DNA of 64,000 nucleotides, taken from NCBI GenBank assembly GCA_039621445.1, contig CP154954.1:36999703-37063702 (forward strand), given 5' to 3'. How positions within the stretch are numbered: position 1 is the stretch's first letter; every line of letters begins with the position of its first letter. The notes below the pieces were generated by a model. It was not told where the DNA came from. It ran no database searches and saw nothing but the letters and a program-made list of their open reading frames with translations. Origin of the DNA: Euglena gracilis. Its lineage: Eukaryota. This document shows, piece after piece, positions 7,381-54,200 of the stretch. A program made the translations under genes and the position numbers.

Positions 7381-7766
7381 AGAATCGCACTCCCTCGAGG
7401 CAAGCCGACCAGGGAGGAAGGGACATCGAGGGCGAAGCACAAAGACCTTGTGACGCCATGTCTTGCTCGCCGGCGGTGTTGGGATTGTTTGGGTGCGCTG
7501 GGTTAGGAGTCTCTGCTTAGTGCCGCCTCGCCGGAGTTGGCTGACGATGCTGCTCCGACTTGGCGACGTGACTTCTTGCCCCTGGGGGGGGTCCTCCCCT
7601 CACCCTCCTCCTGGCCCCCATCTTCTGATCGAGGGAGTTTGAAGACAAATTTTCTTTTACAGGTAGGGGGGTCGGGCTCACAAGGTCTTTGTGCTTCGCC
7701 CTCGGTGACCCTTCCTCCCTGGTCGGTTTTCCGCGAGGGAGTACGAGACACCTTGGGCTCCGCACT

Positions 7767-8594
7767 TTACCCTTGTGAGGCCTGATTGTGCACTGGAATT
7801 AGGGGGGCCAGGGCACGTTCCAGGGCACCTTGGGCACCAAGTCTTTGATTGTGGGCTGTAAAAGCCTCCACCCCCCTCCACAGGCCAATCTCACAAACTT
7901 CTTGGGAGGAAAGGCCCAATTTTTTTAAACCAACTCCTGCCCATCTGGTGGAGCGGGCCCCCCACACCAGGGGGGTCACCCCGTGCTTGGCCAAAAAATC
8001 TTTTGCGATAGAAGCAACAGTGTCTGCACTTATGGCCCTGAAGGGGGGTTTTAATGAAATCAGAAGGGGGCCCCTAGGTCTGACGAATGAACGTGTAGCA
8101 GCCACATAAGACATCATTAGATGAAAGGGGCTTATTTGTGGACATTGGGGAATGGACACCACACTTTCCCACTTGTGAAACTTTTGGCCTTTACGTTTAA
8201 TTTTAAAGTAGGTTGCTCTACCCAAAACACTGGTGGTTCGTTTGACTTGTGCCAAGTCAGACGGTCGATATAAACAGAGAATTCGTGAGCAAAAAATCAG
8301 CTGGGTGCGCAATGTACAAATATCAGTGGGCATTGGGGCCTTGGCCAGCCCCAGCAGGATTGGGAGGGGACCCCAAAATGCCCCATACTTCTCCAGGTTT
8401 TGGTTCCAAAGCCTCTTGTAGGGGGTCAAAAGGGTGTGGAGTCTCAGCCCACCAAACCCAGGAATCAAAAGCATAGCACTGTATGCATTGCGGGCTTGGG
8501 CCTTTGAAAATTGGAACAGTTGAATTAAAGCGTCAGCCACTTGATCTGTAGTGGCTTCAGGGGGGGCACGCCCATGTGTTCCAAAATTACCCAC
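7767..8594 (-). pseudogene. DIRS tyrosine recombinase (degenerate)
   Basis: LYRPSDL (catalytic R), IKRKG, WGARSTR (HxxR decayed), IGLW; H at the expected catalytic Y position, where the 27238-27435 copy has Y. Confidence 0.8.
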
Positions 8595-8829
8595 GAAAGT
8601 GCAAAAGCACTCTGATAACGCTTTAAACTGGGGTTTCTCACCAGGAAATATTTAATGGTTTTAACCTGAATTTGTTTCCCCTCCAAGGCTTGCCTGAGCA
8701 AATCATGCAAAGCAGGGGCCACCTGGGGGGTGGCATTTGTTCCTCCCTGCAATTGATGAACATACCCCTGTAGGGGGTGATTTTCAGGCAGGGGGTCCCT
8801 GAAACTTTCATTTTCCTTAGTTGGGGGCA

Positions 8830-9075
8830 CATGTGGCTGAATCCCAGTAGGGGGTGACCATCAAAACTTTGGTCTGGGGGAAAATTTTCAACCTGGGCAC
8901 AAATTTTTGGATTATTGACCAGGGGGGGGTTGCATAAAGATCCGCCATGTTGTCCAGTGGACATTGTAGTGCATTTACTGCTGTGGCCTCCCAATGGGGC
9001 CACCTGGCCACAAAATTGGGCAGTTTTTGTTGCCTGGGGAGGCAAACAAATCTGGTTCCAGTTTTATGAAATTTT
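8830..9075 (-). pseudogene. DIRS Dam-like amino-methyltransferase (MT) domain, frameshifted
   Basis: LYATPPWSII (NPPW in the 25.7-kb copy) and VLMVTPYW; located after RNase H as in DIRS1-type elements. Confidence 0.75.
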
Positions 9076-9129
9076 GGAATTACTTTCTTAACCATTGAAA
9101 AAGTTGGGGGTCTAAAGAATAATCCCTCC

Positions 9130-9975
9130 TGTCCATTTCCCATCTGCTTATGGGGTCAGCTAGGCATTCCTTTGAAGGCACCCAGTTGACTTGGAGTTTT
9201 ACTTGGTGCTCCATGCACCATATGAAAAATGGTCTTAGCAGTTTGTTGAAGGGGTCCTTTCTCCCCCCCCCTTTGGTCAGGTAATAGTAGATTACCTGGT
9301 TGTCCACTGACAGGGACACTGTTTCCCCAGGTTTGCTCAAACTTTTCACAGTGTTTATTGCTGAACTGAGCTCCTTTACATTGATGTGTAAAATGGAGTC
9401 TTTTCTCCAAAATTTTGCACAATTTCTCCTGTGTGGGTGTCTAGCCCCCCCCCCAGGCATGGGTGCTCCTGTCTGATTGCAACCCTCTGGTTGCATTTTG
9501 GGGAAGGGTCTGCCTCCCCAGGGGTCTAGCTGAATTTTTATTTCCATTAATTTGGGTCTTGATGTCCTGGGAAATTGGGTGTTTTGAGTCCCAGGGGTCT
9601 GCGGACTTTGCCACCAAAAATTTTGTCAGGGCGTCTGTAAAAGCCCTTAAAAAGGGCAGGGCCATAAGGTTGCATCTTATTTGGCCCAAAATGGCAGCCA
9701 ATTGCCTTTTTGACATGTAATCTTTTTTCACGAGTTTTCCAAGCTCCTTTTTTATTGTTTTCACTTTCTGGGGGGGCACCTGCAGCTTTCCTTCCTGGAA
9801 GTTCAGTTGAAAAAACAGATGGGTTACCATTTGGGTGGGCTGGAGGGTGGACTTTTTCACATTGATTTTAAACCCAGAATCCAGCAAATCTTTGACAACT
9901 GTGTTCAGGTGATTTTGCAAAGTGTTTTGGGTGGTGGCCACCAGCAAAACGTCGTCCAGGTAAACAAACGCCTGG
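9130..9975 (-). pseudogene. DIRS RT C-terminus (YLDD) and RNase H
   Basis: AFVYLDDVLLVA at ~9935-9970; HINVKEL...VDNQ...WVPSKECLADPISR RNase H motifs. Confidence 0.85.
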
Positions 9976-11065
9976 TGACGACCTTTTGAGGTCGACCGCT
10001 GGGCGGCGGAGTTTTTCCCTTTTAGAAGGCCTTTTGAGGGCGGTTTTGCTCTAATTTTAAGGCTTTCTAAACATTTCCATTAAAATTCCCTCTCCTAGGG
10101 CGCCCGTGGTTTGGTTGTGCAAGGAGAGAGATTGAGTGATGCTAGGTATTCCCAAAGGGTGATTTTGGGTCTATTTAGCATAATTTTAAGCTTTTTATGC
10201 ATTTTTCCTTTGGTTTTAAGGGAAAATGTTGGATTTGGTGAGAGCGCTTGCAAGCGCTTGGAACAGAATTTTAAGAGATTGGCGCCTGAGTTCCTGAAGT
10301 TTTTGCAGGGGTTTGCAAAGCTCAATAATGATGGAATTCAGCATAATTTATCAAAATCAAGGGGGGAAACCTTGATTTTGACTTGGGTTGGTTGATTTTG
10401 ATGCAATGGGCAAGAATTTGGGATTTGAGAGCGCTTAGGAATCAGCGCACTCAATCCTAAATTTAACTGCCCATCAAGGGCATCAAAATCATTTTATTTT
10501 CACAGGGTTTTCCTCTTTACCTTTTACACCATTGTACTTGTTGTGGCAATTCAATTACAATCAAGTATTGGATTTACAATTGGAATTGCAAATGGAAGAT
10601 CAACAAAACAATCAGTCATTTGAAGAAGGTGAGGTTTGTCTTCCCCCCACCTCATCTGTGGGAAAAGGGGCAGGGGGGTGGGACTCCTCAACTCAGGCAA
10701 CCACAGGCCAATTTTCACCCCAAAACCCCCTTTTTGGCCCAGAAACTGTGAGAAATGACACCCAGGGGGGGGGTGTTGGCTCTCACTGGTTCAGCTGAGC
10801 AGGGAGGGGTTGAAACCCCAAAGGCACCCCCCTTGGAGATCCCAGTGACACCCCCCCCAGGGGTCGGGGAGGGTCCACTGGGAGGTTCCTCCTTGGAAAT
10901 GATGGCCCAGTTTCGGCCACAGGGGGGGCCAGAATGGGAAAAAATTTCCGACACAAGTCGGCTCGAGGAGCCAAAAAACGATCCTACGCCGGAAACTGGC
11001 CCGGGGCGGGGGTTTCCGCTTCACCCCAGTGCTGCCGGGGGACATGGCAGCACGGGTGTGAAACA
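9976..11065 (+). repeat. 5' LTR of element 1
   Basis: TGACGACC...GTGAAACA; only about five differences from the 3' LTR seen by eye. Confidence 0.95.
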
Positions 11066-14000
11066 TGGTAAGCAGAGGTTGATCCTTCAGCCTTCAGTCG
11101 GAAATTTTGGGTTAGAAATCCCTGCTCAGAATGTTTTCTTTGATGATCAGCCAATGGCCCAATCTCAGATGGCAAATCTGACGATTGGAGTTTCGGGGAA
11201 CAGGGATTTGGGACCGGAAACCAGTTTGGCTGAACTCAGAACCCCCACAGATATGGGACAGATGTTGGAATTTCAGGGTGGGGATGGCCAGGTTGTCATT
11301 TCCAACCAACCGTGTTTTCCAGAGCCTTTTTCAGGAGCTTTGCCTTTGCAAAATATGGGGTACGGTTTTGTGCTGCTGAGTTGCAACCTCTCCCAGACTT
11401 TTCATGGGTGCAAAATTTAGGGAATCTGCCATCATTACCCGCTTTTGCATTGCCTTTGCCTCCAGCTCAACCAGTTTCTTCGACACCAGCCCAAGAGCCG
11501 GTGGCACTTTTGCAGTTTTCCCAACCATCCCAGGTAGATGGGCTGGCGAAGGAAACGGCAGGTGCCTCGGCAGGGCAGGGGGGTGATAACCCCAGCCCAG
11601 TTTTCTTTGAAAAGCAAGCACAGGTCAATGTGCTGGGCTTAAACAATAGTAATAACTGGGACAGCAACGAACGGGTCAGAGCAGAAGTCGAGCAGGCAGA
11701 GGAAAACCCGAAGGACCAGCCCAGCTCTACTTCTGCTCGACGACCCCGAACACCAGCTTCATCACCAGGTAGTGATGAAGTTCAGCAAAAACGGCTGCAC
11801 CGTGAGGTTGATCACGGTCAGCCAGCAGCTGCTGCAGCCCCCCAGCCTCCTCATATTTTCATCGAGGGGGGTGAGGAGGAGGTCCAACCCCCAGCCTATG
11901 AAAGTTCTGAAGCCACCCCCAGGGGGGGTTCACAAAATCAGGGATTTGAAGACCCCTGGGGGCAATTTTTAGAAAGTAACAGAGACCTCCAGTTGACTGT
12001 GCAGCACCTGACTTTTCGGGTTTTGGCTCTGGAAAAAGCCAACGAAGAGTGGGTTCTGCAGCAGCAGCAGCAACAACCCCCCGCGGTCGACATCCACCTG
12101 GTGGAGCACATGGCTGCACGAATCGAAGAAACGGCCAGGGCTGACTGCCTCCATATTTTTGAACTTTTTGAGAAAAAATGTGAGGCCCAGGTGCAAATTT
12201 CTGTGCAAAAAATTGACGCACAGGCACTTGAACTTTTTGTCGGGCAGGAAAAAAGTTTTGAGGAAAAACTGGCCCAGCAGTTTTCTTCGAGCCGTGATCA
12301 GTTTTTGGCCCTGAGGCAGGAATTTTTACGAATTTTGGACAGCCTGCCACAGGAAATTTTTAAGCAGGTGCAAAATCAGGTGGCTGCCTTACCAATTAAG
12401 GATCTCGTGCTTGAAAATTTTCAGCGGTTTGCTGAGAATTTTAAAGCCGCCCAGCCAGCTCAGGGGGGGGAGGCAGAAACTCTCCAGGAGCTGGCCGTTG
12501 TCGCTGCCAAAATCGTTGAAGTTCAGGCTGACCTGGTATCGCTGCGTAGTACGGTACAGGGCCAGGCTCAGCAGCTCCAGCAGTTCGCTGATTATGTTCG
12601 CCAGCTGGGTGAGCAAAATTCAGCAATGAATACGGCCCTCCATGGTTTTGGTGGTGGTATTCAGAAACTGCACCAGAATATTTCAGATGAAGTAGGGAAA
12701 CGACACTCAGAAATGCAAAAACTGTTGACGGATTGTCAGCAGAATTTTCAGAGTGTTCATCAGCAGATTTTTTCCCAGGAGAAAAAATTTGGTGGGCTGG
12801 TGGAGGAATTAAGGCAGGGACTTGCAAAAGTTGGGGGGAACACTTTCGAGTTGCAGAAAGTGTTGCAGGATTTACAAAAAAATGGACCCATACACCCAAC
12901 TGCAGAACCGAGAGGAGTTTTGCAGAAAATTTCTGACATGTGGTGGCTGCGGCAGGGCAGCCAGCAGCCCCTACACCCAGTGGAGCTGCCACAGCCTGGG
13001 CAGCAGCTGGCCCAGCAGCCCGTCGTCCAGCTAGCCCAGCAGCCTGGCCAGCCAGCAGGCCAGTCGCAGCCTGCTCACGGGCTGCCAAGGGGGCTGGGCC
13101 TGCCGTCGGCTGGACAGCAGCAGCCCCTGGGGCAGCCTTCCCGCTCACTGGCCAGCACGGTGCCCAGTGCTGACCCAGCATTTTCAGGTCAGATTATTTC
13201 TCAAAATAAATCTGCAAGTTCAAACATTTCCCCTCCCTTAGTTATTGAGGGGGGATTTGTTTTGGAGGACACACAAGATACGGCAGTGGTTTCTTCTGTG
13301 TCATTGTGTGTCCCCCCACATAAGGCTCTATCGGCTGAATGGAGCTAAATTAAGTTACCCCACCATATTAGCCCAATTCCAGAACCGTTATGCCATGAGT
13401 AAGGGGCTGACGGCTCGGAAAATATGGCAGGAGGTAACCATGGTTAATGAAGGAAAAATTACCCGGGCTGATCTGCAAGAATTTTGGATTAAATTTTGCA
13501 GTGCCTGGCACCATGTTAAGGATGCCACAGCCGGGGAGGCTCGGAGATTATTTTTGGAAAGAATTCCTCCTTTTTTAAGCAAGTTTTGCATAGAAGAGGA
13601 GGATAACCGAGCCCGTAAACAACCCATTGTCAGGCTCACAGGGATACCAAATCCCACGGTGGATGGGATTAAAAGGAGTGTGAGCCAAATCACTGGGGGG
13701 ATTGATCCACGGAAAGTGGTTATCAAAAACCCTGGTGCCATTTGCCTTATTTATTTCAGTTCTTCGCAGGAGGCACTGAAATTAACAGCCGTAAATGGAA
13801 GGAAATTGCAGGGAATGGAAAATTTCCTCAACGCCGAATTGGTGGAACAACTAATGACCGTTGAGGAAATGTTTGCTTTTGCCGAAGGCAGGTTGGCTCT
13901 TCGGGAGAAGCAGGATTTGGCTTTGAATCAGCACCATTTTCCCAGATTATTCAGCAAATCGACAACAAAAGGCTCGGGGAAAATACAGGTGTTGGAAAAA

Positions 14001-14490
14001 GGCCAGACCCCCCCGGTGTCCCCAACATCCGTTTCAGCACCAGCGGCCGGGGAACAGGGTCACACCTCAAAATCTGCCCCACAGCCAGCTCCAAAGGGAG
14101 ATAAGGGGCCAGCCCAGCCAGCCCAGCGGGGCAGGTCCCCTTCTTCGTCTTCGCGGCCAGGTGCAGCTTCATGGTCGCGAACCCAAAGTCCAGCACCCCC
14201 AGCCCGGCAAGGCAAGGGGGGGGAAGACCTGGACCCCGCAGGCATCGGGTCGGGGCAGGTCGCCATACCCATGCTTCAACTGTGGGGAGGGTGGACATTA
14301 TTTTTATGAGTGTGATAAACCGCTGAGTGAGGCCCTTGCTAAATCTAAGGAATTTTGGCAAAATAATGGAAAAGGCAAGGGGCAGCCCAAGGGTAAAGGG
14401 CAGCCAGCCACTCAGCGAAATTCCTCAGGCAAGGGGGGTGCATGGTCAAAGGGGGGTGGGCCCACCTCTTCTCCCCCTGGGGCCCAATAG
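10592..14490 (+). CDS. gag: Gag of element 1, split over several frames: low-complexity and coiled-coil N-terminus, capsid-like region, RRM-like insert, CCHC knuckle
   Basis: Overlapping ORFs 10532-10798, 10755-11420, 11312-13348, 13245-14309, 14161-14490; CFNCGEGGHYFYEC knuckle; region similar to element 2 Gag (W..V..VNEGKIT...FW..F..AW..VK.AT..EA.RL). Confidence 0.75.
11066..11080 (+). promoter_or_regulatory. Primer-binding site, probably initiator tRNA-Met
   Basis: TGGTAAGCAGAGG immediately after the LTR-terminal CA. Confidence 0.75.
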
Positions 14491-14604
14491 GGGGGCCAGG
14501 GGCAGTTTGAGAAGGGGGGGGCTGCCCATGGCCGTGTCTCTCCCCCCTGTGAGGAAAACGGCGTAAATATTTCTGATTCAAAAAACTGGGCTGCACAGGA
14601 TTTT

Positions 14605-15420
14605 ATGGCTGATTCAGGGTGTGGTGAAAAACATTCTTTGCATCAGCCCCCCAGATTTTTGAATCGGACCCGATACTCCTGGAGGGAGGGAAAATGTTCA
14701 AGGGTTCCCATTTTGCATTCAAATCTGCCACAGCCCAACCCCCTACCATCAGCTCAGCGACCTCAGGCATTAGATTTATTCGCTGGCACAGGTTCGGTGG
14801 GGAAGCGGTTGGCAGAACGGGGGTATGAAGTTTTGTCAATTGAAAATGCTCCTTGGACGGACTTCCACCCCCACACAGACATTTTGACCTGGGACTACAG
14901 GCGATACCCGGTTGGATTTTTTGAGGTTATTGCCGCTAGTCCCCCCTGTAATATTTATTCCACGGCTTATAACCCCAGGCCAAGGGATTTCTCCCAGGCG
15001 GATGCCCTGGTGGAGAAAGCCCTGGAAATTATAAATTATTTTCAGCCAAAGTTGTGTTGGTTGGAGAACCCCCGCACTGGACTTTTGCGAAATAGGGAGG
15101 TGGTGAAAAACCTGCCCTATATCGACATTGATTATTGTCAGTTTTCAGATTGGGGTTATAAAAAGCCCACACGTTTCTGGTGCTGCCCAGCCATTTCACA
15201 ATTACGGTCGGTGTTGTGCGATGGCGAATCGTGTCCTAACCTGGTGATGGGGGACAATGGGCAGTTCCGTCACCGTAAATTGTTGGGGGGCAGAAAAATG
15301 AAGTTTACCCCCCGACAAAAAGGACGAATACCCCCCCTGGTGATTGATTATCTCCTAACTGCTGGGGATTTTCGGGGGGGGGCAGCCCAAAGAAATTTCC
15401 CAAAATTCTCAGGATTTTGA
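14605..15420 (+). CDS. C5-cytosine DNA methyltransferase (compact DNMT) between gag and protease
   Basis: Motif I DLFAGTG, motif IV ASPPC (catalytic PC), motif VI WLENP, motif VIII-like YKKPTRFW, motif X-like IPPLVIDYLL. Confidence 0.9.
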   Translation: MADSGCGEKHSLHQPPRFLNRTRYSWREGKCSRVPILHSNLPQPNPLPSAQRPQALDLFAGTGSVGKRLAERGYEVLSIENAPWTDFHPHTDILTWDYRRYPVGFFEVIAASPPCNIYSTAYNPRPRDFSQADALVEKALEIINYFQPKLCWLENPRTGLLRNREVVKNLPYIDIDYCQFSDWGYKKPTRFWCCPAISQLRSVLCDGESCPNLVMGDNGQFRHRKLLGGRKMKFTPRQKGRIPPLVIDYLLTAGDFRGGAAQRNFPKFSGF

Positions 15421-15451
15421 GGAATGGGAAATTCCAGACCGTTGTTGTCAT

Positions 15452-19762: not shown

Positions 19763-19828
19763 AAAAGGGGGAAAGGGAGGTGAAAAAGGACCTGGAGTGG
19801 TTGCCTGGGGAGGGGGAGGTCCCACTCC

Positions 19829-21930: not shown

Positions 21931-22277
21931 GTGTTTTCTTTTTTCACCAAAAGGATTTTTGGTGATAATGGGCCCCCCCGTCCCTTTCCGGGTGGGAATA
22001 CCGTGGGGGGGGGCTGATTTTTATCCATTCAAGAAAGGATTTTTTTGAGTGGTGTTGGGCCCCCATTTCCTTTCACGGTGGTGAGAACCGTGGGGGGGGG
22101 CTCGGTGTGGTGGAACGGGATCTATGGGTTATAGATTCCTCCTCACCGTTACGCCACCACCTATACACGTTGCCGAACAATGTTATCGCAATTGCGTTGC
22201 AAAAATTCAAAGTGTCTTTCATTCCCACCCCAAGGAAAGCGAGAAGGAGAGGGGGTGAAACCCCCGACTTTCGTCGC

Positions 22278-41887: not shown

Positions 41888-42312
41888 GCTCTAAGGTGAG
41901 CCATAAGGCCCTGTCAAAGGCTCTACGGCGAGCCAAGTGGGAAGGCAAAGTGCTGTTTTTAACCGAACACCAAAATTCAAAAGCCGGCTTTGCACGTCCG
42001 TGTGGGTGTTTGTGCGCACATGCGCACGGGAGTGTGAAAGGAAGAATGTACAAAGGCAAGCATTTGAGAATGTGAGAATGGAGAAAGATAGAAAAAGGCC
42101 CTGCAAGGGGGCCGGGGCACCACAGTATATTCGCTGCACGTTCGCTATATTGCCGTCCGCTGTCTCCCTTCCCTTCCTCTACCTTACCCCGCTGCCCTTA
42201 CACCTTACCCCACATTGCCGTCACGTCCCATATGGTGGTGTTGTAAGGATTCCTTTTCAAAGCATCGGATATGTGGATGATGTGGTTGGGAGTCCATGGT
42301 CACATAATGAGC

Positions 42313-42700
42313 CCCCCCATCGGTTTGACAAATATCCCCCCGGCCCGAGGAGGGGGGGGGGCGTTTGCTTTTTGGACAAAAAGCCCCCCGCCCCGAGGGG
42401 GGGGGGGGGGCGTTTGAATTTTTAAAAAATCCCCCGGCCCGAGGAGGGGGGGGGGGCGTTTGATTTTTGGATAAAAACCCCCCCGGCCCGAGGAGGGGGG
42501 GGGCGCTTGAGCTTTTGGACAAAAATACCTTTGGCCCGAGGAGGGGGGGGCCAACCGAATTTTTACCAAAAATCCCCCGACGCGAAGGGGGGGGGGGCGC
42601 CAACCGAATTTTTACCAAAAAATCCCCCAACCCGTTGGAAGGGGGGGGCAGAACTTGGTGAAGACCCTCATACCACCCGTGAGAAGCGGGGGGGGGGGCA
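42313..42700 (+). repeat. ~47-bp tandem repeat array in the 3' UTR of element 2
   Basis: About seven units of AAAANCCCCCCGGCCCGAGGAG(n)CGTTTGNTTTTT. Confidence 0.85.
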
Positions 42701-42916
42701 GCCTAATATTCATTGGTTGGTGAACCAAGTCTTTCCCAAAGGTTTGAAGGCACTTGAAAGCCATAGTCCCTGAAGTTTGTTTCGCATTTGTTGATTCAAG
42801 GGAGAAGGGGTGTGGGACATAGGTTTTGTATGAAAGAGTGCCGAATGGTGGATTTCCCCCCCCGTTGTTGAGGAACGGGGGGGGGGGACGAATTTTTGGT
42901 GTCCGACTAAGGTCGC

Positions 42917-42927
42917 AAGGGAGAGGG
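42917..42927 (+). promoter_or_regulatory. Polypurine tract of element 2
   Basis: AAGGGAGAGGG abutting the 3' LTR. Confidence 0.85.
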
Positions 42928-43767
42928 TGTCGGCCGCCGGCTTTCGCCGGCAGCCAAAAAAATGCCAGAAGGTGCAAATTACAAAGTCGCGGGTAACAGC
43001 CAATCAGTTAAAAAAACCCGCGACTTAAATTGGAAGCGGGTCAAATTTCGAAGCGCCTTCGAATTTGTTTTTTTTCACAGAACTTGAGGTGTTTTCCCCA
43101 ATATTTGGCAAGAAGGAATACTATTGTATTGAATTTGGCAATTGGACTTTGATTTGGAGTGGCAAGTTGAGTTTCATTGTTGGTCATTGATTCATTGAAG
43201 TCAATTGAATTGAAGGAACCTTTAACACCACCGCCCACCCTCCTATATCTTCACCTTCGCCTCCGCTTTCACCCCCGACGACCACTCCTTGCCCCAAGGT
43301 TTGCACATTCCATACATTCACATTTCACAGTTTTCGGTTTCAAGTGTCTTCTCATTAAAGTTTCAGAGTTTCAGAAATCAAGTTTCTTTCAGTTTTTGAC
43401 TTCAAAAGTTTCAAGCTCCAGTGGGTTGGTTTTGCTCACAAGGTGTGCAAGGGAGAGAGAGAGAGAGAGAAAAGTGAGATTTGCAAGCAAAATGGCAGAT
43501 TTTTCGATTTTAAGCAAAATTTCGGAAACCGTTCAAAAAACGATCCTACGCACCGGCTGGGGTTGGGGAAACCACCTGGGTGAAAAAAGGGGTTGACTTG
43601 AGCCCACCAACTCCCGGAGAAAGCGCAGGCCCCACCCCGGAAACACCCCCCCCCCCCCCTGTCGGTGGTCCTCCCCACCGGCGAGGACCCCCCGGGGCCC
43701 TCGGCCCGAAGGGACTCGGCGGTCGCGGGGGCGACCGGCGGCCCGGGGGTGGCGGACCCGGTGAACA
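42928..43767 (+). repeat. 3' LTR of element 2
   Basis: Direct repeat of 31687-32522. Confidence 0.95.
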
Positions 43768-46676
43768 ACACTCTTCTTCTTCTTATTCTTCCTCTTCTTT
43801 CGTCTTCGTCTCTTCCTCGTTTTTTCTCCTTCGTTTTTCTCCTTGTTCCCCTTCTTGGAGAGGACATGAATGCCGTGGTGTCTGTGGCGTCACAAACACA
43901 CATAATTCTCGGAAAATGCTGCCAAAAAGACCCAGTCACCTCCACACTCCCAAGGAAAAAGTTTGGCCTCCTGCAAGGAAGGTTCTGTTTCTTGTTTTTT
44001 TGGAAAACTTGAAAACCCCGTTATAAAAAAGTAAACGATATTTGGCAAAAACTGCCTTCCACAAAATCAAAAAAGCACTTAATGCTGAATTAATCTGACC
44101 GAAATGCCTCAAAATCTCAGAAAAAAACATAATCTGGACAGCTGCCAGCCAGCCCCCCCACCACCCTGACGCTGTGGATCTGCCAAATCTGCCGCGATCT
44201 AAAGGCAATAGAACTGGGTTTATAGTTAAAAGAATTTGAAACTCCCGTTTTGGATTTTTCTAAGGAGGGGAAATGTTCCAAAAATGCCAGATAAATTATT
44301 TTTCCCGGTTGTCTGTTTTGTGCCGAGATTTGGTCATAACATTTTTGCTTCGACAGAAAAAAATTTGGACGTGCATTTTTCAAATGTCTGACAACGTTTT
44401 CGATGGCCATATTACACCTGTTCACCTAATCAAGCGCTCGTCGCCGTTCATCCACGTTATTCTAGGGGAAGATGTGGTGTTGTGAGCTTCAAGTGTTGGG
44501 TGGGTTGGGTTGCGAAACCGTTCACACCAGGCAGACCGTGGCGGCCGTCCTGGTTCTCCGGATGCGGCGAAGTCTAGTCCCCCAGGGGACGTCCTTGCCC
44601 TGCATACCACCGACATTGGGCGGGGCCACTTCAGAGGCAGTGAGTCTCTGGGGTGTGGAAGCAAGAGCAATGGGAGATTGTTGTCTGAAGGCACTGGGAA
44701 GGTGATTTTTTTTGTTTCCACCTTCCACACCCTTGTAAGAATGTCAAAATACTTCACTTATGTTCTGCCCCATGTATGGAGCAATTCATGTTGAGTTGGC
44801 GGACCGGCCGCTGCTGCTGTTTTATATATAGCGAACTGCACAGCGAATTCAGCAACCGTCCAACTGTTTTCACTGATGAAGGCCCCCGCTTTCTTACCTA
44901 TGTTTCAATCTGAAATTGTCTTTGGAGAAAGCAAATACAAGAAGGAAAATTACAAGCGCTGCAGCCAAAGTGGAGAAGCAATCAAAGGTTTCAAACCAAA
45001 AAGAAGTTCAGCTTTATAACAAAAGATTGGGTATTTATTTATATATTTGGGCTGCTGCTGGCACAGAGAAGCAGTACAAGTAAAAAGGTGTTGGTGCTGT
45101 GGTACAAGCATTTATTGGAGGGTCTCCAACCAGGCCTTTTCCTAAATACCCCTACCATCCGAAGGGAGGCCAAGCCGGAATCCCCTCCAACCCAGTCCCC
45201 AAAAAGGAGGGCGTTAGGTTCCCAGAAGAAATCCTATGTGGGAAGGGGAGTATCTCGAATCTACCCCGCTCCCCAGAGCCCATCGTGCCGACCCCAAACC
45301 CCGCCTGCACCCTCCGGAGTGAAAGCTTGGCAAAAAAATTATTTTCCAGGAAGATGGTAGTAGACGTTCTTAACAGAACAAAATTTCCTGGGAGCAAACC
45401 ACACAGACAAGATGGATCCGGCTCCCACGGATCCCCTCTCCCCAGAGCCCATCGCGCCGACACCTCACCAGGCCGGCACACCCTCACGGACCTCCAGGAA
45501 TGAAAGCTGGGCAAAAACTTTATCCTTCGGGAAACTGTTGCTGAGTTGTTACAGCCCCTGGTTCAGGGGATCGAAACTAAAAAGCGCATCGCAAATAGGA
45601 AGCGAAGGTTATGAAAATGCACTCTCAACCAAAGTGGCACAAAAATAAAACAAAAAAGTGAAAAAACACCAAATTGCAGAAAAATCATTTAACACCTCCC
45701 CACTTTTCCACTGGAGAAACTGTGCTGGGCTCTGCTGCAAAATTTGTTTCATTTGTGTAAAATTAAGCACTCTGTTGTCCAAAAAGCAAAAAAATGGCAA
45801 AAAGCAGAAATAACTAAAAAAAAAACAAAAATTTCCACAATAGAAAGACACAAAGAAACTGTGAAAAATTCGTTTTTTTAGAAAAAAACACATTTTTTTA
45901 GAAAAATAGAACTATGCCAAATAGGCACCCACAATTTCACCTCACAAGGCCATTGAAAAAAAATGCCTGGGTCATTGCGACTGGGCCCCTGTGTACCAGG
46001 CAGCCGTAAGGCCATGGTACTGTGTATGTAGGTATAAGCCTACGGCCAGATATAGCTCTGAGCCCCATACACAGTACTATGCTAGGTGGTATTCCTACAG
46101 ATGGCCAACGGCCTGAATTAGGAATACCAAAGCCTAATTCTGGTTCTCCTCTCCACAGGTGGTATTCTTTGCTTTTCATTTTGACTTTGCAAGACTTGAT
46201 CACCAAGTCTCATTTTTCACATTTGAAGTCCTGAAAGGACATTTGTCACTTTGTCTGGTCCGTAGCCCATAGGGCTCCTCCCCTGCCTTGTGCTCTGCCT
46301 CTTAATTGGGGAAAAGGGCAAACAACTTTTATATTATTCTTTTCATTTTTCTGTTACTCCAACTTTTTTTTTTTTTTTTCTAAAGGGTGAAAGCGAGGAA
46401 AGGTTGGACGTACACTTGGTAGCAGTTTAGGTTTTTCGATCCTTTTGACCGCAAACGGTCGTGTGGTGCCCCGCCTATAGGCGACCACAGACACTACAAG
46501 CCGTTTCCGGCCAAAGCCGTACGCACGGACACGTCCTCTGACGGTTCGCAGTATACGCTGCTTCAAACCTCAGAGTTCGGGTCTCTGCTTACTTTTTATA
46601 CTATTCCCTCTTTTTGCACTTGTTCCTGCATTTTATCCCACAATCTACACTTGGTTTTTGCGTTTTTGCCTTAAAA

Positions 46677-49600
46677 ATGCAGAGCACAACTCCCATCGAC
46701 TACGCTGCATTGATTGGGTCACTTCGAGGACTTGAACCTGCAGCACCATTGACCAGCTCTATTGAGCATTCACAACCCCATCGGGGTAATCAAGCATTGA
46801 TCCATTCCAAAGGTAATCCTCCTTCCCCGCGTGCGTCACACCTATCGGTGTCTGTGTCGAGTTATCCTCCCCCCGCCCAATGGGCATCCCCACACCTATC
46901 GGTGTCAAGCTCTATAGAGCAACCCCATGCCCAACAGGCAGAACCCCTTTTGTTGGAAAGCCGATCGGCTAACACCCATTCCCCCCAGCAAGATCTCGCA
47001 CTGGTGCCGATAGGCACATTTGTCTCTGAGGCGGATACGCCACGGCAAATTTTTGCTGAGGGTGGGTTAGAAACACCATGTTTCTTTCAGCCCCCCCCCT
47101 ATGCATCCCCCCACAAGTCCGATTGGACAATTGCCCGCACCACCCGATACGGGTTCTTTCCATGCATTACCATGGCACCCGGAGATGCGTTTAACGGTTC
47201 CCGCTTATACAAGCCCCTCCGAGTCCATGAGCAGTGATGCGGAAGAGTTGGAAAATATTTCCCCTCAACCCATCACCGTGATTCAGCGCATAGTCGCAAA
47301 TCTTCCAGTGGACCACCCGCTAACGCGGCAAATTTCCCATGTCCACACTTGTGTAGCGGATTGCGCTATGACACTTAACAAGGTTCTGGATTTTGATGAG
47401 AACAACCAAAAGGTTGTAGAGCACAAGCTCAATTACCTTTGGAGTTATGTGCGTGATGTTGGTCAATATTGCCAAACAAACTTTCAATCCACCAATGTGG
47501 ACCTAGCAACCTTGCGACAAGGTTTGTACACACATTTGCAGGCATATTTGCCACAACACTTCCAAAAAGTGAGTGAAGCCATGTGTGAAACACAATCCCG
47601 CAATGATGCGATTTTCTCCAACATGCAACATAGTTTGCAAGCTTTGTCCCATCAATTGGAGCCAATTACGGCAATTTTTCCACAATTGCAGCAAAAGTTG
47701 CATGAGCCCCCCATCAAAAATCCCGATTTGGGACAATTTATTACAATGGAGCAATTCTCCACCCTTGCAACCGCATTTCAGGAAGCGCAACAGCGCATTT
47801 TCCAGTTGAGCGGTGATTCCGCGAATTTTACCCACTTTTCTGCCCAAGCCCATGAAAGTTTTGCCCCCGCACGTATGTGCAACAATTGGAGGAAAGACTT
47901 TCCCGATTGGAGCAGAAATCTTGCCATTGTGGTGAGATTCCCGCTGAAATTGCAAGTTTTCACACCCAAATCGCGCATATCGCGAGTAGGATTGAGAATT
48001 TGCAGCAACAGTGGCGAAATGACACAATGGAATTCCGAACCGCAATCGCGGATTTGCAAAACCGCAATGCAGCAACCCGTGCACCAACACCGGATATTAG
48101 TGGACTCAAAGCCACCATGTCCGACTTGCACAAACAGTTACAACAGGATGTTGGTAACATTGAAGCCTCATTGGCTAAGTTACACACCCGCTATGCGGAA
48201 GTAGCTGGTAGGATCCCGGATGTTACCGGCATTCAAACCGCGACAGCGGATTTGCACAAACGCATGCAAGAAATGAGCACAAAAATGCTTCAGGTGCAAT
48301 CACCACCCCAAGGCACATTGCCGTTACCAACACCTACCCCCACACTCCCAAAAACACACTTGGACAAGATTTGCGCTGAAATGCGCGCGGAAAATCACCA
48401 AATCATGCAAGGATTTTGTGACAGTCTCATGAACACCGAGAAAACGGTGAAGCAGGATGTCACAAAACTGCACAATGACATTACCGCGCTATCCGCGCAA
48501 GTTTCTGTCTTGATGGAACAGCGAATGGCTGAAAAAGTCAAAAGTCCGCATTCGGACTACCCCACCAAGCCATCTCCACAATTGGAGGCCATTTCCAGTG
48601 CGATGCGCACTTTGGTGACAAGAGTACAAGAATTGGACACTGGGTTTGGTGCAATTTCGCACGATTTTCAGTCAATTTCTGACAAAATCCCGCTTTTGGA
48701 TGAACTATCCTCATACCGTAGGCGGATTAAGCGTTTGCAGGAGGATGTGGGTCGGATAACCGACAATTGGCAGGTTGTTGACCATTTGGAGCAAAGTGTG
48801 CATGAATTTGCAACAAATTTGGACCAAATTCACGCACAACTGCGATCCATCCACCAAAATCCGCAATCGGGTATGGTTGGCACACTTGCCGCATCTTCCA
48901 GCTTCAAAAGCGCTATTCGCGCACCAATTCCCGAGTCCACAGGCACATTGCCACCAAATCGCGTTTCTGCTCATGCGGTGGTTCCCCCACTAGCATTACC
49001 AGTCCCAATGGACGAGTTTTCGGATGATGAGTCGGGTTTTCAAGCAAAAACCAGACCTACCCCCCTCTTAAATAAAGAGATTCGGGAATCCGAACTTATT
49101 CGTGGTATGATCCACACCCCTACACCGGGTATTGGTCACACCTCCCAAATTCGCTTAGTAGCACCAATGGTGCAACCACGTGATACCTCACCCCCACATG
49201 CGCAACCGCATCACCATTCGCGCAATCGCGATTCCCCTAATTTGCATGGTACCTATTGTACACTAAGTGGTATGTTCCATGCGCAATCGCAGAATAACCC
49301 GAACAATACCCTTGGTGCAACCACCGGAGTACCTGCACATAGTGTGATTTCGCGCCCGGGCCCACGCCCCTGGAATACCACCGAAGGGCCACGGGTTTCT
49401 CAGAAAGATTTCAAAGGCACCATCGCGATAGCGAACAAGGTGAAGCCCCAATGGGACGGTGACCCCACCACGTGGAAACAATTTTTCCGCGATTGGGAAT
49501 ATTACTGGGATTTGAAGGGACCCACCCAAGATGACAACCCGGAGGTAATCAAGATGGAATTCATCGATTGCCTCCCCAGGGATGAAAAAGAACGCGCCAG

Positions 49601-50824
49601 ACAATTGGTCATTGGCAGGCGCATTTCTTTTGAAGAATTGGTTGAGCAATATGCTTCCTCATGCTCCAGTTTGGTTTCCAGAATCAGTCTGGAAAACAAA
49701 TGGCGGCAATTCACCCGCCCAGACCGCAAATGGAAGTCGATAGACTTGTGGTACTCCAAGTGGCTTGCATTAGCAGCCGAAGTTGATGAGTTAGGGGAAA
49801 AGCAAATCAAAGAACAATTTGATGCGGTATTACTGCGCTACATCCCCAAACTCATCAAGGAAATTCACCGCGAGGAACTCGCGGGACACATTTTGACTCT
49901 CGATGAGAGATGGAATTATATTTCCAAACAAATGAAGTTATCACAACTTCTGGGACAGATTGAATCGGCATATCACCACCACCCTACCGCGGGTGTACCC
50001 ACCGGTTCAGTCTATGCAGTCCAAAGGACTACCTCCCCAAAATCACCAAAATCACCCTCCAGTGATTCCAAAACGCGCTATCCGCGCTCAAACCCTAAAC
50101 CCCGACACGGGAATCCAAACCGCGCTATTCGCGCTCTTCTGACCAAGTTTCGGACAAAGTGTGTTTCTTGTGTAATCAACCGGGACATATGTCTCGCGAA
50201 TGTCCAAACCCCCAAGCGCGAAAGCGCAGTAAGAGCCCCCGAGGATCCCTCACTTCCTGGAGTTCGCGTTCCTCACGATCTGCGCATTCGGAGCGGTCGG
50301 GATACCGATCGGGTGATGGAAGACCGCGTTCCCGTTCACACCACCGCAATAGCGGACGTGGTTTCAAACCGCGAGGTCGGTCCCCCCGTCCCCCCACCCG
50401 CAATCGGGATGCCAATCGCGATTCTTCGCGATCTCGGTCGCGAAGTGGGTCATCCTCTTCGCGATCCGACCGCGGTCGAGCGGATATCCGCTCCCCGCGT
50501 CGCCATGATGCCAAAAGGCAATCGCAATCGCGAACCCGTTGTTCCCTTTGTGGGTCTAAAGACCACCATTCATCCAAGTGCCCCCGTTCCCGCTCTCCCC
50601 GCCCTAGCCATGGTCGTCGCCATTCCAATCGCGGTTCTGCCAATAGGCAGCGGGTTGGTTTCAAAATATCCTCTATCGAGGAAAAACACCTGGCTTCGGG
50701 CAGGGAGGGGGATGAGAGCACCGAGGATGAGTTGGTGGAAGACAGGAATGCCATTCGCGCGATACGCGCAATTTACTCTAGGAAGTCCACCATAGGCCAA
50801 AAGGCCGACTCCGATATGGAGTAG
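46677..50824 (+). pseudogene. gag: Gag of element 3 (frameshifted): coiled coil, capsid-like domain, two CCHC knuckles separated by an RS-rich tract
   Basis: PQWDGDPTTWKQFFRDW; CFLCNQPGHMSREC and CSLCGSKDHHSSKC. Confidence 0.8.
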
Positions 50825-50869
50825 GGGAGCCCGAGGTCTGAGGGCACGGACCTCTGGGCTGATGGACAG

Positions 50870-53158
50870 ATGGAGGTAGGAACTGATCACCCCTGCCCCC
50901 CCTGCCCATCGGTCTTTTTGGTCGGTACCCGGAAAATTTTCGGGTCCCCCACTCCCCGCGCCAAATTTTTGCTTGGAATGTTGAGCAAAGTAAGCCAAGG
51001 GTCATGGAACAGTTGGCGCAACAACAATTTTACACCCAACCCTTCGCTTTGCGTACCCCCCATGGAACTTTTGGTCCAAGCGAAAATCAAAACTCAAAGT
51101 TTCTGTGCACAAGCCAAAATTTTAGTCGACACAGGGTGTCGAATCCCCCTTCTTTTCCGCAAAGGACTTATACCCACCCCCCTCTTGGTTCATGCCAAGA
51201 ATCCCATCAAAATTATGACCGCTGACAACAGCCCCATGTGCGGTGGTGACTTGGGATGCATTTTGGACATAGTCCTCCCCATTATCCCGAAGCACCACAC
51301 ACAACCCCCACAATTCCAAAATTTTCTGGGTACTTGGGCATTCGAGGCGAATATCGCCGGGTCAGATGTCATACTCAGTTTTCCGTTCCTCCGGCAACAC
51401 CGATTGGTGGTGGATTGTCCTTCGCACGGTTTGCGCACTACCCCCCGCACACACACCACACCCCCGAACTTGTTCCCCATGACATCCCCCAGGATGTCCC
51501 CCCGCATTTCCACAACGTTTTCCACAACCGAAAACACCGTTTCCTACCCTAGGGGTAAAGAGAAAGCTGCCCCCCTACCCACCGCACTTTTACCGCTCGT
51601 TTCCCATGCGGTAGGGAAAGCCAGTAGCTTAACCCCGCACGTTTCGCTGGGTTCCCAGGCGAAAGCCCAAAGGCCTGAAGAAATTTCGGTGTCGAGTAGC
51701 CGCCCAGCTGCACAACTTTTACGCTTTCCACCAGGTGTGTCGAGTTCAGACACCCCTGTACACCCCCCAGCAGCTACCCCAACCGACACCAACTTATGCA
51801 CTGACACCCACACAAACGCGCACCACATGCACCACCCCTCCTACCAATGCGCTCACTGTCGGAGAATTTCCGCTTACCATGATTTTGATTGTGGATGTCT
51901 AGTTGAAACTTCCAAACTAATCCGATTGGATCCCGCAACCGGGAATTTTTCCCCCCCTACACCTGGTAGTGATACCTATACACCTGGTACGGATTTAATA
52001 GATAACCAAAAGGTACACAGCCTTGATACCATGGGTGATACACCCATCAGCACACTTGGTAATTATGCACAGCTCACAAATCCACTTGGCAGTTTTTCGC
52101 AATTCGCGAAAGTGAATCGAGCACTACAGTGCAAAGGCATAGCCTCCCTCTTCGGATTCGCGCATAGCGCTCCCTATGCGCCTATGGCGCTCTCCAACAC
52201 CCCCGCGCATATCGCGCTTCCCGCACATAGTGCGAATTCCGCGCATATCGCGCTCGCCGCACATAGTGCGAATCCCGCGCATATCGCGCATTCCGCGCTA
52301 TCGCGCATCACCGATGATTGGGTATATGCCCAACCCACCCATGTCCCCCCTGGAATGAGTCCTATGGACATGTATGTGGATGATTCACAATTTCGTTGTT
52401 CTGTGTTACAGCGTGTTCCCCCCCTTCAGGATGTTGAGCGGATCTCCAAGTACACCAAGGATACCTGGAATGCTTTTCAATTTGGTCAATATCGAATTTT
52501 GAAACATTGGTTTTCAAAAATCGCCGATATGGCGGATTCTTTTGATTTGACCTTGGAAATTGATGCATTCTCCTCCAACGCGCATTCGCGATTACCGCGA
52601 CATTGGTCGCAACATTCTAATGCTTTTGATAAGTTTTGGGGAGACACTATCCTATGGATGCATCCCCCCCTGAAACTTATCCCGCTTGTTGTAGATAAAA
52701 TTTTCCAGGATCAAGCGCGAGGCGCATTACTTGTTCCTGTGAATCCCGAAGCGGAATGGTTTCTAAATTTGACTTATGTCACATTTTATTGGTGGGACCT
52801 ACCAAATGATGTTCCTCTATTCGAGGATTTCCGTGGAGTGGTATTACCACCTTTTCAAGAAATCATTTTCCGTGTTTGTTTCTTTGATGCTTTTCATGTT
52901 TCTCAATCTCCACCGCTGAATGTAAGTGTGTTGGATCATACCGACTATGTGGGAGCCGATATGGCTTTTGTGCATAATGCCGATAGGCATCCCAGTTCGG
53001 AATCCCCTGTGGTCGATATGATCCATAAACAGGTTTCCGCTGTCATTGAAAGTGCAGGACAGCATCCAAAATCAGCAGAACTCTGTACGCGCATCAGTCG
53101 CGAATTTTCTGGTGTTTTGGAAAACCCTGTTTATCCGCGGACCTTTTGGCGTTTGTAA
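50870..53158 (+). CDS. Pol N-terminal part of element 3: aspartic protease, long linker, amino-methyltransferase-like domain (~52480-52890)
   Basis: ILVDTGC...DVILSFPFL; EIDAFSSNAHSRLPRHWS...NAFDKFW...LWMHPPL...GALLVP...WF. Confidence 0.8.
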   Translation: MEVGTDHPCPPCPSVFLVGTRKIFGSPTPRAKFLLGMLSKVSQGSWNSWRNNNFTPNPSLCVPPMELLVQAKIKTQSFCAQAKILVDTGCRIPLLFRKGLIPTPLLVHAKNPIKIMTADNSPMCGGDLGCILDIVLPIIPKHHTQPPQFQNFLGTWAFEANIAGSDVILSFPFLRQHRLVVDCPSHGLRTTPRTHTTPPNLFPMTSPRMSPRISTTFSTTENTVSYPRGKEKAAPLPTALLPLVSHAVGKASSLTPHVSLGSQAKAQRPEEISVSSSRPAAQLLRFPPGVSSSDTPVHPPAATPTDTNLCTDTHTNAHHMHHPSYQCAHCRRISAYHDFDCGCLVETSKLIRLDPATGNFSPPTPGSDTYTPGTDLIDNQKVHSLDTMGDTPISTLGNYAQLTNPLGSFSQFAKVNRALQCKGIASLFGFAHSAPYAPMALSNTPAHIALPAHSANSAHIALAAHSANPAHIAHSALSRITDDWVYAQPTHVPPGMSPMDMYVDDSQFRCSVLQRVPPLQDVERISKYTKDTWNAFQFGQYRILKHWFSKIADMADSFDLTLEIDAFSSNAHSRLPRHWSQHSNAFDKFWGDTILWMHPPLKLIPLVVDKIFQDQARGALLVPVNPEAEWFLNLTYVTFYWWDLPNDVPLFEDFRGVVLPPFQEIIFRVCFFDAFHVSQSPPLNVSVLDHTDYVGADMAFVHNADRHPSSESPVVDMIHKQVSAVIESAGQHPKSAELCTRISREFSGVLENPVYPRTFWRL

Positions 53159-54200
53159 GATTGAGCTTAAGGAAGGTGCAAAGCCAATGCATCGGAAATT
53201 TTTCCGTTGTTCCGGAGAAAGAGAGATAGCTCTCAATGAAATGATTGAAAAGCTCATAGAGCGGAAGTGGATCATCCCTTCCAAGAGTGAATGGACCTCC
53301 CAAGCAGGTCAGAAAAAGTGGAGGCTGGTACTGGATTATCGGTACTTAAACTCACAGACTAAGGATGACCCATTCCCGTTACCTCTAATAGAGGACCTTA
53401 TCACAAAACAAGCGGATAACCGCTTGTGGTCAATTTTCGACCTGGAGGATGGTTTCCACCAAAGGTATCTGGATCCCGATTCGCAAGCCTATACAGCTTT
53501 TGTAACATCCAAAGGTGTTTACCAATGGACGGTTTTACCAATGGGTGTTAAGAATGGACCAGCAATGTTTCAGCGCATGATCCAATGGGTCTTACGGGAT
53601 TTACCGTTTGCGCTGGTATACATTGATGATGTTTTGGTTGGTACCCCCCCTCCTTCAGCGAATACACACGAGAATATTCTCGACATTCACTATCGTGATG
53701 TTCGCGCGGTATTAGCCGCATTTCTCAAACACAGACTTTTTGTCAAAGGTGCCAAAATGCACTTATTTCGCGAAACGATAAAGTTTTGCGGTCACATTCT
53801 CAATAATGGCCAACGCCGAGCGGCGCCTAGCAAACTAGAGGCCATTAAGAAATGGACACCTGAGGTCATCAAGACCATCACCCATTTGAAAGGATTTTTG
53901 GGATTAGCCCAATATTACGCGATTTACATGAAAGATTTCGCGAAAATCGCGGTACCTCTATCGAGGCAACTCAAAAATCGCGCACCCGAAAATACCAAAG
54001 TCAAATGGGACGCAGATATGCGTGAAGCTCTAGAGAGCATTAAAAAGCTAATGCTTGAAAATGTCGTACTCGACATCGCGGATCCCTACAAGCCTTATGT
54101 GCTAGAAGTCGATAGCAGCGATTATGCTGTAGGCGGAGTTCTAAGCCAGCATAACGCGGCTAACGAATTACGCCCTGTAGCATTCTTCAGTAGAAAGCTC
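53100..54200 (+). pseudogene. pol: RT and partial RNase H of element 3
   Basis: KWRLVLDYRYLN, FDLEDGFHQ, LPMGVKNGP, YIDD, VDSSDYAVGGVLSQ. Confidence 0.92.

Follow-up and report, generated by a model that had tools for sequence, protein, structure and literature searches.

Three retrotransposon lineages with methyltransferase-like domains side by side at one Euglena gracilis locus

A nest of retroelements with methyltransferase-like domains

The stretch of Euglena gracilis DNA analysed here (the window; 64,000 nucleotides of contig CP154954.1, positions 36,999,703 to 37,063,702 of the forward strand) is repeat-rich eukaryotic sequence with a GC content of 51% and an observed/expected CpG ratio of 0.55. 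Self-comparison and domain scans resolved five retroelements and one fragment, which form a retrotransposon nest of three lineages represented by two DIRS-type copies (DIRS-A and DIRS-B), two chromovirus-type Ty3/gypsy elements (E1 and E2) and a truncated Ty3/gypsy element (E3). All five elements that could be judged (5/5) carry a methyltransferase-like domain, which is a compact cytosine-5 (C5) domain, a Dam-like amino-methyltransferase domain, or both, and the four architectures that the original prediction had proposed for this one locus, with a methyltransferase in every judgeable element, were all recovered in their places by domain scans and translations. A sixth element, a DIRS-like reverse transcriptase (RT) fragment at 30617-31231, was left out of the count as too short to judge.

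The features of E1, with its long terminal repeats (LTRs), open reading frames (ORFs), protease (PR), RNase H (RH) and integrase (IN), are as follows.

9976-23380, plus strand: E1, complete chromovirus-type Ty3/gypsy element with an LTR pair, target-site duplication, primer-binding site (PBS) and polypurine tract (PPT)
9976-11065 and 22289-23380, plus strand: E1 LTRs, 1.09 kb, 99.45% identical, with TG..CA ends
9972-9975 and 23381-23384: E1 target-site duplication CTGG, 4 bp
11234-14487, plus strand: E1 gag region, in three reading frames
14488-14490, plus strand: in-frame TAG at the junction of gag and the C5 ORF
14746-15390, plus strand: compact C5 domain (DLFAGTGS, PPC, ENP and a motif X-like IPPLVIDYLL)
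15359-19762, plus strand: pol ORF of 1467 codons (PR, RT, RH, IN, chromodomain)

The order of E1 is thus Gag-TAG-C5-PR-RT-RH-IN-chromodomain. Its gag region comprises an ORF of 704 aa with coiled coil, a part resembling capsid (13317-14051) and, near 14269-14319, a CCHC knuckle; its pol ORF comprises PR (DTG, ~15479-15841), RT (~16496-16990), RH (~17207-17644), IN (~18434-18961) and a chromodomain (~19565-19663) whose profile match was weak (E 2.9e-3); the pol families detected in E1 and E2 were RVT_1, RT_RNaseH, Integrase_H2C2 and rve. The PBS adjoins the 5′ LTR and the PPT precedes the 3′ LTR, both as read in the sequence. No Dam-like sequence was found in E1, even at E 10. The element sits in the RT of the minus-strand DIRS-A, whose C-terminal RT half ends at 9974 and whose N-terminal RT half lies beyond E1.

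At least half of a sample of words from the E1 interior was present in 19 public runs, with 16 studies represented among them. A single DNA run yielded 5627 contigs that were placed on E1, with a summed depth near 1e5, so the family is very abundant in the organism of that run. E1 represents a young, very high-copy family. Contigs from a leaf-litter metatranscriptome match parts of E1 at 90-99% identity, from which we draw no conclusion about habitat or expression. In the window copy the frame is broken inside gag and between the C5 and pol ORFs; these breaks were read as private damage and not as programmed frameshifts, since the contigs placed on E1 show that not all copies share them.

E2 is organized as follows.

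31687-43767, plus strand: E2, complete chromovirus-type Ty3/gypsy element with an LTR pair, target-site duplication ACAC, PBS and PPT
31687-32522 and 42928-43767, plus strand: E2 LTRs, 96.9% identical
32270-36475, plus strand: gag ORF, stop-to-stop length 1402 codons
36476-36478, plus strand: in-frame TAG at the junction of gag and the C5-Dam ORF
36731-37354, plus strand: compact C5 domain (DLFCGKGS, VPC, ENP), 48% identical to that of E1
37364-37768, plus strand: Dam-like domain, N6-adenine-methyltransferase fold (DCFATS ... NPPW; PF05869, E 2.4e-10)
37863-41869, plus strand: remainder of pol, with several frame breaks

The C5 and Dam-like domains of E2 form a single ORF, and the order of the element is that of E1 with the Dam-like domain added between C5 and PR. 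The remainder of pol contains PR (37863-38066, with DTV in this copy), RT-RH (38026-40031), IN (40407-41448) and a chromodomain (~41675-41791) with a clear match (E 7e-11). The pol proteins of E1 and E2 are ~54% identical and the position of C5 is common to both; the two are sister chromoviruses. Their PBSs, at 11066-11082 (TGGTAAGCAGAGGTTGA) in E1 and 32523-32539 (TGGTTAGCAGAGGTTGG) in E2, are near-identical and stand directly 3′ of the 5′ LTR. The E2 gag has an N-terminal extension of ~970 aa with coiled-coil stretches and 78-bp tandem repeats (33392-33660), followed by a capsid-like part (aa 976-1278) homologous to the gag of E1 and E3. The gag regions of all three gypsy elements are unusually long (32270-36475, 11234-13348 and 47856-50795) and homologous to one another only over the last ~300 aa.

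E3 has no detectable LTR pair and consists of the following parts.

46542-54203, plus strand: E3, truncated Ty3/gypsy element; homology ends at ~54203, inside RH
47856-50795, plus strand: coiled-coil gag
50099-50821, plus strand: CCHC ORF
50822-50824, plus strand: TAG
~51053-51412, plus strand: PR (DTG)
52445-52924, plus strand: Dam-like domain (DAFSS ... SNAF ... HPPL)
53133-54203, plus strand: RT-RH

Its order is Gag-TAG-PR-[Dam-like]-RT-RH, and with 39% identity to E1 over RT-RH it is a more distant gypsy element.

The DIRS-type sequences, in which the methyltransferase (MT) is accompanied by a tyrosine recombinase (YR), are the following.

7383-9975, minus strand: DIRS-A, 3′ part, decayed, with several frame breaks
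9444-9974, minus strand: DIRS-A RT, C-terminal half
9083-9625, minus strand: DIRS-A RH
8820-9166, minus strand: DIRS-A Dam-like MT (TPPW)
7770-8651, minus strand: DIRS-A YR ORF
23381-23832, minus strand: DIRS-A continued past E1; N-terminal half of RT, ORF 23455-23832, RVT_1 profile 2-97
24674-27825, plus strand: DIRS-B (C-terminal part of RT, RH, MT, YR)
25460-25816, plus strand: DIRS-B Dam-like MT (NPPW), one in-frame stop
25974-27432, plus strand: DIRS-B YR
30617-31231, plus strand: third DIRS-like RT fragment, just upstream of the E2 5′ LTR, ~45% identical in protein to the DIRS-A RT

Three-frame translations of the DIRS copies, which are 80% identical in nucleotide sequence, gave the order RT (YLDD), RH, MT, and YR in place of a DDE integrase. 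The YR ORF at 7770-8651 (minus strand) had no Pfam match and scored 0.98 against eukaryotic Phage_integrase clusters in Atlas, which we take as a lead only. RH, MT and YR were sought for the RT fragment at 30617-31231 and none was found. Compared with DIRS-A, DIRS-B has ~590 extra bp (26368-26960), and this stretch holds an inverted fragment of a DIRS RT N-terminus (26858-26980, minus strand). Both copies are truncated or rearranged, and the only repeats seen are a 164-bp direct repeat, with one unit at 23399-23562 and the other, in the extra stretch, at 26799-26962, and some small inverted pieces; the extra stretch and the repeat may be leftovers of DIRS terminal or internal repeats, or the result of rearrangement.

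The compact C5 domain and its relatives

The reality of the METHYLTRANSFERASE folds was judged by family scores, conserved motifs, AF2/AlphaFold models and structure searches. The C5 domains matched DNA methyltransferase families of PHROG with E values between 1e-10 and 2e-11. When the E2 ORF served as query, 92 relatives were returned, every one of them in a metagenome or run assembly and at best 57-71% identical, of which 14 also carried PF05869. Across 94 aligned rows, conservation reached at least 90% at the Pro-Cys of motif IV, at the E-x-P of motif VI and at other positions (the conserved blocks correspond to motifs I, F-x-G-x-G; IV, Pro-Cys; and VI, E-N-V-type). The AF2 model of the domain reached a pLDDT (predicted local distance difference test) above 90 over residues 10-210, and its best Foldseek matches, among those listed, were all C5 DNA methyltransferases (M.HaeIII, DNMT1, DIM2, DNMT3 and M.HhaI; E ~3e-8 to 3e-7). 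The domain is accordingly modelled as a C5 DNA methyltransferase fold that keeps the PC and ENP motifs. Three cysteines (C135, C162 and C167 of the query) between motifs VIII and X, at residues ~215-250 of the E2 ORF, are also at least 90% conserved and could form a metal-binding target-recognition insert.

A C5 tree was built from 71 rows, namely 69 C5-covering hits among 99 blastp hits plus E1 and E2. One branch (support 99) placed all rows with a downstream Dam domain, the E2 group, on one side and E1 with 16 rows that lack a downstream Dam on the other, so that a single change of state suffices to explain the downstream Dam; 38 rows too short to judge were left uncounted. Seven proteins carry Dam upstream of C5.

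A C5-motif scan of metagenome contigs gave 101 matches, 98 of which were confirmed; 80 loci were kept and 15 of these examined in detail. Five (L001-L005) were retroelement-like, with a GC content of 48-56% and 42-53% identity, and L004 consisted of one ORF with C5, RT and RH. Nine others had a GC content of 32-37% and densely packed ORFs, in most of these loci on one strand, and in them the C5 homologue was a standalone gene of ~210-300 aa. Hallmark genes were found on these contigs, namely Capsid_N, a double-jelly-roll capsid family, in L008, L016 and L039 and a D5-type primase in L059 and L080, and in L009 (GC 52%) a major capsid protein of the type of nucleocytoplasmic large DNA viruses adjoins the C5 homologue. 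Further methyltransferases also occur on the virus contigs (FkbM-type in L008; Methyltransf_24 and N6_N4_Mtase in L039). In a 76-row C5 tree, for which filtering by coverage retained 53 of the 80 loci, a branch with support 99 separated 28 retroelement-type rows, including E1 and E2, from 48 standalone-type rows; 44 of the latter had a GC content below 42%, and virus hallmark genes were checked in six loci only. The nearest Atlas neighbours of the domain were short virus-labelled C5 clusters (score 0.89-0.90; a lead only). The compact C5 module thus has standalone relatives on contigs from double-stranded DNA (dsDNA) viruses, which is new here: a literature search of limited coverage found no publication linking LTR-borne C5 domains to virus-borne homologues.

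The Dam-like domain

An alignment of the four Dam-like stretches of the window confirmed the shared motif order that the original prediction had read from the sequence; as aligned, it runs D-x-F-A/S ... D/N-A ... (N/H/T)PP(W/L), with TPPW and HPPL as variants at the Asn and fourth positions. The aligned motifs are DCFATS...DDAM...NPPW in E2, DAFSS...SNAF...HPPL in E3, DLFAS...VDAL...NPPW in DIRS-B and ...VNAL...TPPW in DIRS-A. Against PF05869 (cut-off 28.1 bits) E2 scored 40.8, E3 19.0 (E 1.2e-3) and DIRS-B 16.5 bits; E3 also matched phrog_111 (E 4.4e-4), and E2 scored 38.1 against NCBIfam TIGR01712, for which the cut-off is 97. Run against 1.84 billion representatives, a profile built from the four stretches matched 3002 proteins at E<=1e-3, with 261 remaining at E<=1e-10. 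An NPP[W/F/Y] motif was present in 126 of 168 aligned domains (164 database proteins and the four window stretches). A tetrapeptide scan revealed no further intact Dam-like sites in the window.

Sequence comparison of the E2 ORF with solved structures gave nothing significant (best E 0.088). In a joint model of C5 and Dam the pLDDT fell below 50 after residue 306, and the Dam-like domain was then folded alone with a deeper alignment. The resulting model, built with 80 relatives, had a pLDDT of 92.5 and an amino-methyltransferase Rossmann fold. Its top five Foldseek matches were all PCIF1/CAPAM (E 1e-3 to 6e-3, none at E<=0.001; TM-score normalized to the query, TMq, 0.51-0.58), and PCIF1 also ranked first among 48,161 chains in VIA-align (Z 9.6, root-mean-square deviation 3.1, 128 residues aligned), ahead of other RNA adenine methyltransferases (Z 8-9), T4 Dam and EcoDam (Z 7.6) and M.TaqI (7.2). 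The nearest solved fold to the modelled domain therefore appears to be that of PCIF1, an RNA cap adenosine methyltransferase. This lead, which is new here, is modest, because models that lack a clear match often have a best Z of 7-8. PCIF1/CAPAM itself has an NPPF-type catalytic motif. The E2 domain differs from it in being only ~135 aa long and in lacking both the WW part and the helical part that binds the cap, and the sequence families score it as a phage Dam.

The gag-pol junction and a proposed mode of action

In all three gypsy elements gag closes with a single in-frame TAG followed by G (at 14488, 36476 and 50822), beyond which another ORF carries on without a change of frame. Gammaretroviruses such as MLV express Gag-Pol by readthrough of a UAG codon, and the junctions of the window resemble theirs in the single in-frame TAG followed by G; they differ in showing no pseudoknot or significant structure after the TAG. 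The idea that TAG is a sense codon here was discarded, because none occurs inside the long ORFs and a pol-side ORF is itself closed by TAG.

This arrangement suggests that the methyltransferase domains would be made only upon TAG readthrough, as part of Gag-Pol, and would for that reason be packaged into the particle in small amounts alongside RT and IN. There they may act on the nucleic acid of the element itself (cDNA, RNA-DNA hybrid or RNA) around reverse transcription and integration, and such methylation could set the epigenetic state of new copies. As a whole, this scheme of readthrough, packaging and methylation of the element's own nucleic acid is tentative, and we consider it somewhat less than even in probability.

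Separate ancestry of the Dam-like modules

The Dam-like domains of the window occupy different positions, as had been predicted: in the DIRS copies the domain follows RH, in E2 it is flanked by C5 and PR, and in E3 by PR and RT. Among the 50 longest of the 150 profile hits listed, Dam lay upstream of RT in seven and RT or RH upstream of Dam in three; the orders RT-RH-Dam-IN and Dam followed by C5 occurred once each. A Dam tree of 126 domains (quick IQ-TREE, 131 columns, unrooted, with many forks unresolved) placed E3 together with a Dam-before-RT protein in a clade of 11 rows (support 96), E2 among C5-Dam proteins, of which P0006 is the nearest (69% identity), and the DIRS copies in a 4-row (support 98) and a 6-row (support 95) clade with RT-before-Dam proteins. 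Approximately unbiased (AU) tests on a 43-row set rejected sister pairings of E2 with E3 (p 5e-6), E2 with DIRS-B (p 2e-9) and E3 with DIRS-B (p 9e-5); the rows and pairs were chosen after the first Dam tree was known. Identity between the domains is low, at 31% over 62 aa for E2 and E3 and 23% for DIRS-B and E2.

Because the AU tests reject these pairings and each domain groups with proteins of its own architecture, the exchange is old and the co-resident DIRS elements are not its donor. The trees are unrooted and carry no direction of transfer; that DIRS elements gave their domains to gypsy elements is the conclusion of a recent preprint (Fernandez-Moreno et al., bioRxiv May 2026, 10.64898/2026.05.21.726589; hereafter the preprint). 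The original prediction had proposed repeated capture or exchange. Its modular, repeated acquisition is upheld, whereas exchange among the elements of this locus conflicts with both the AU tests and the Dam tree, and the nesting at 9976, put forward as a route of capture, turned out to be an ordinary insertion of the Dam-less E1 into the RT of DIRS-A. Acquisition of the methyltransferases is old and lineage-specific and the nesting incidental; the interpretation offered with the original prediction is supported in part.

Our preferred reading, to which we assign a probability of about 0.75, is that the stretch is a retrotransposon nest in a CpG-depleted eukaryotic genome in which three unrelated lineages each have their own long-held methyltransferase module in pol. 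Several results weigh against it. The Pfam scores of the C5 domains are marginal (PF00145, 20.5 bits for E1 and 22.5 for E2, with a gathering cut-off of 22). The catalytic Asn is missing in E3 (HPPL) and DIRS-A (TPPW), and the fourth catalytic residue is aliphatic (NPPI, NPPV, NPPL and variants) in 9 of the 11 rows of the E3 clade. Apart from the E1 pol ORF, every copy in the window is interrupted by frame shifts or stops. When folded, the stem-loops behind the three TAGs did not outperform shuffled sequence (z 0.69, -0.39 and -1.64), so that readthrough is inferred from the arrangement only. Finally, the preprint reports that eukaryotic DAMs expressed in Dam-deficient E. coli caused no rise in N6-methyladenine (6mA). 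By the alignment, the aliphatic residue at position four of the catalytic motif appears to be a property of the PR-Dam-RT clade, which is new here.

The alternative that survives best, though we hold it to be unlikely, is that the Dam-like domains are not DNA adenine methyltransferases and are instead PCIF1-like, acting on or binding RNA, such as the capped transcript of the element or the RNA strand of its replication intermediate, or are catalytically inert. PCIF1 was the best structural match of the E2 model in two independent searches (Foldseek and VIA-align), Pfam PCIF1_WW matched DIRS-B (E 0.003) and the database protein P0240 weakly, the glycine-rich S-adenosylmethionine loop is replaced by D-x-F-A-S/T, and the negative E. 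coli assays point the same way. Iyer et al. 2016 (PMC4738411) assigned the MT domains of DIRS1 to the PCIF1 clade and considered that they are probably inactive. On the other side, the best scores of the domain in Pfam, NCBIfam and PHROGs alike are to phage families of N6-adenine DNA methyltransferases, the PCIF1 Z of 9.6 is only modestly above the common 7-8, a solved PF05869 structure for comparison perhaps does not exist, and the preprint reports more 6mA on insertions of Dam-bearing LTR elements (DAM-LTRs). The fold searches on the model agree with the PCIF1 affinity seen by Iyer et al., and the census of NPP[W/F/Y] motifs speaks against general inactivity.

Less probable still is a joint history linked to viruses and RNA, in which the C5 domain was exchanged between chromoviruses and protist dsDNA viruses (polinton-like or giant-virus-like, with double-jelly-roll capsids) and the Dam-like domain is a minimal PCIF1-type enzyme that marks the element's own RNA or RNA-DNA intermediate in the particle and not chromosomal DNA. 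If true, such a history would be missed by the current picture of a prokaryotic DAM plus a eukaryotic DNMT, and an RNA-marking module would account for the negative DNA assays in bacteria.

Recent capture or swapping among the co-resident elements, for example from DIRS to gypsy through nesting like that at 9976, is very improbable. E1 is physically nested within the DIRS-A RT, the Dam-like motif order is common to the elements, and the preprint mentions, for one host, that recent exchange or nested insertions are possible; set against these are the low Dam identities given above, the grouping of each domain with database proteins of its own architecture, the rejection of all three pairings (named after the first tree was known) and the lack of Dam in the nested element itself. 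The weakest alternative, that the architectures are chimeras of nested insertions or misassemblies with methyltransferase ORFs from other inserts, is suggested by the crowding of nested, decayed elements and by a warning of such artefacts for one host in the preprint, and can be dismissed in view of the C5 ORF in frame with gag across a single TAG (E1 and E2), the one ORF shared by C5 and Dam in E2, the clean LTRs and target-site duplications of E1 and E2, the C5 position they share despite ~54% pol identity, the same orders on independent metagenome contigs and proteins, and the coverage of the E1 C5-pol junction by contigs from four runs.

Relation to known elements

The general phenomenon is already described in the preprint, so the present finding confirms and extends it and opens no new field. 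The preprint reports 10,030 eukaryotic DAM proteins, mostly in retrotransposons, with at least four transfers from DIRS-like elements to Ty3/gypsy LTR elements and 6mA enriched on DAM-LTR copies. It also defines the EpiLTR, an LTR retrotransposon with DAM, DNA methyltransferase (DNMT) and chromodomain, in two protist or algal hosts. E2 corresponds to this definition, with a Dam-like domain, a C5 DNMT and a chromodomain within one LTR pair. The DNMT module of the EpiLTRs is reported to belong to a clade sister to DNMT4, and the main text gives no domain order for the second EpiLTR type. E3 is of the DAM-LTR kind, a Dam-bearing gypsy element, and DAM-bearing DIRS elements are co-resident, as in the preprint; the incongruent Dam and RT histories are a further likeness to its DAM-LTRs. 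The accessible portions of the preprint mention no Dam-less, C5-only sister of the E1 type, no methyltransferases between a gag TAG and protease, no aliphatic NPP[I/V/L] clade and no virus-borne C5 relatives. What is added here includes the Dam-less C5 sister family and the placement of methyltransferases between the gag TAG and protease.

The MT domain of DIRS1-type elements has long been known (Poulter and Goodwin 2005, cited in PMC4738411; overview PMC3266345). The window copies resemble DIRS1 in the order RT-RH-MT-YR, with YR replacing integrase, and in an MT with the D-x-F-A-S ... NPPW pattern; they differ in being decayed and 5′-truncated or rearranged. Retrotransposon-borne DNMTs of dinoflagellates and streptophytes were described by de Mendoza et al. 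2018 (PMC5890265) and, by the citing passages in the preprint and PMC12344493, are DNMT3-type or orphan enzymes in DIRS, LINE (long interspersed nuclear element) and an LTR element, the last of which these two sources name differently. The likeness to our elements is a C5 methyltransferase within a retrotransposon; unlike those DNMTs, the window domain is compact (~210 aa), and its nearest relatives outside retroelements in these searches are standalone genes on dsDNA-virus contigs.

DNA-modifying enzymes borne by elements challenge the view of methylation as purely a weapon of the host. The locus presents three methyltransferase-bearing lineages side by side, one of them young and very high-copy, which would make the host well suited to finding out whether enzymes encoded by the elements determine how new insertions are methylated. 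The link of C5 to dsDNA viruses, the PCIF1-like adenine fold and the clade with the altered motif sharpen this question and point to candidate substrates.

Other features of the window

The CpG observed/expected ratio was 0.92 in E3, 0.59 in E2, 0.51 in E1 and 0.31-0.39 in the DIRS copies. E3, with its degenerate Dam-like domain, is the only element with neither C5 nor strong CpG depletion, an observation resting on one element per kind. Neither a tRNA scan nor an Rfam scan of the window gave a match, and no host genes were found among 50 further ORFs.

Just past the truncation point of E3, a GC-rich (59%) open frame of 473 codons (54181-55602) had no family match, and its Gly/Ala/Pro-rich translation suggests that it is probably not coding. 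Around 1833-2902 several frames are open at once, a mark of low-complexity sequence. An 8-bp tandem unit occurs in two mutually related stretches (1991-2155 and 56341-56503), and the right end of the window (57114-64000) is filled by ~198-bp satellite arrays, in which a family numbers as many as 17 copies with 60-100% identity to a reference copy.

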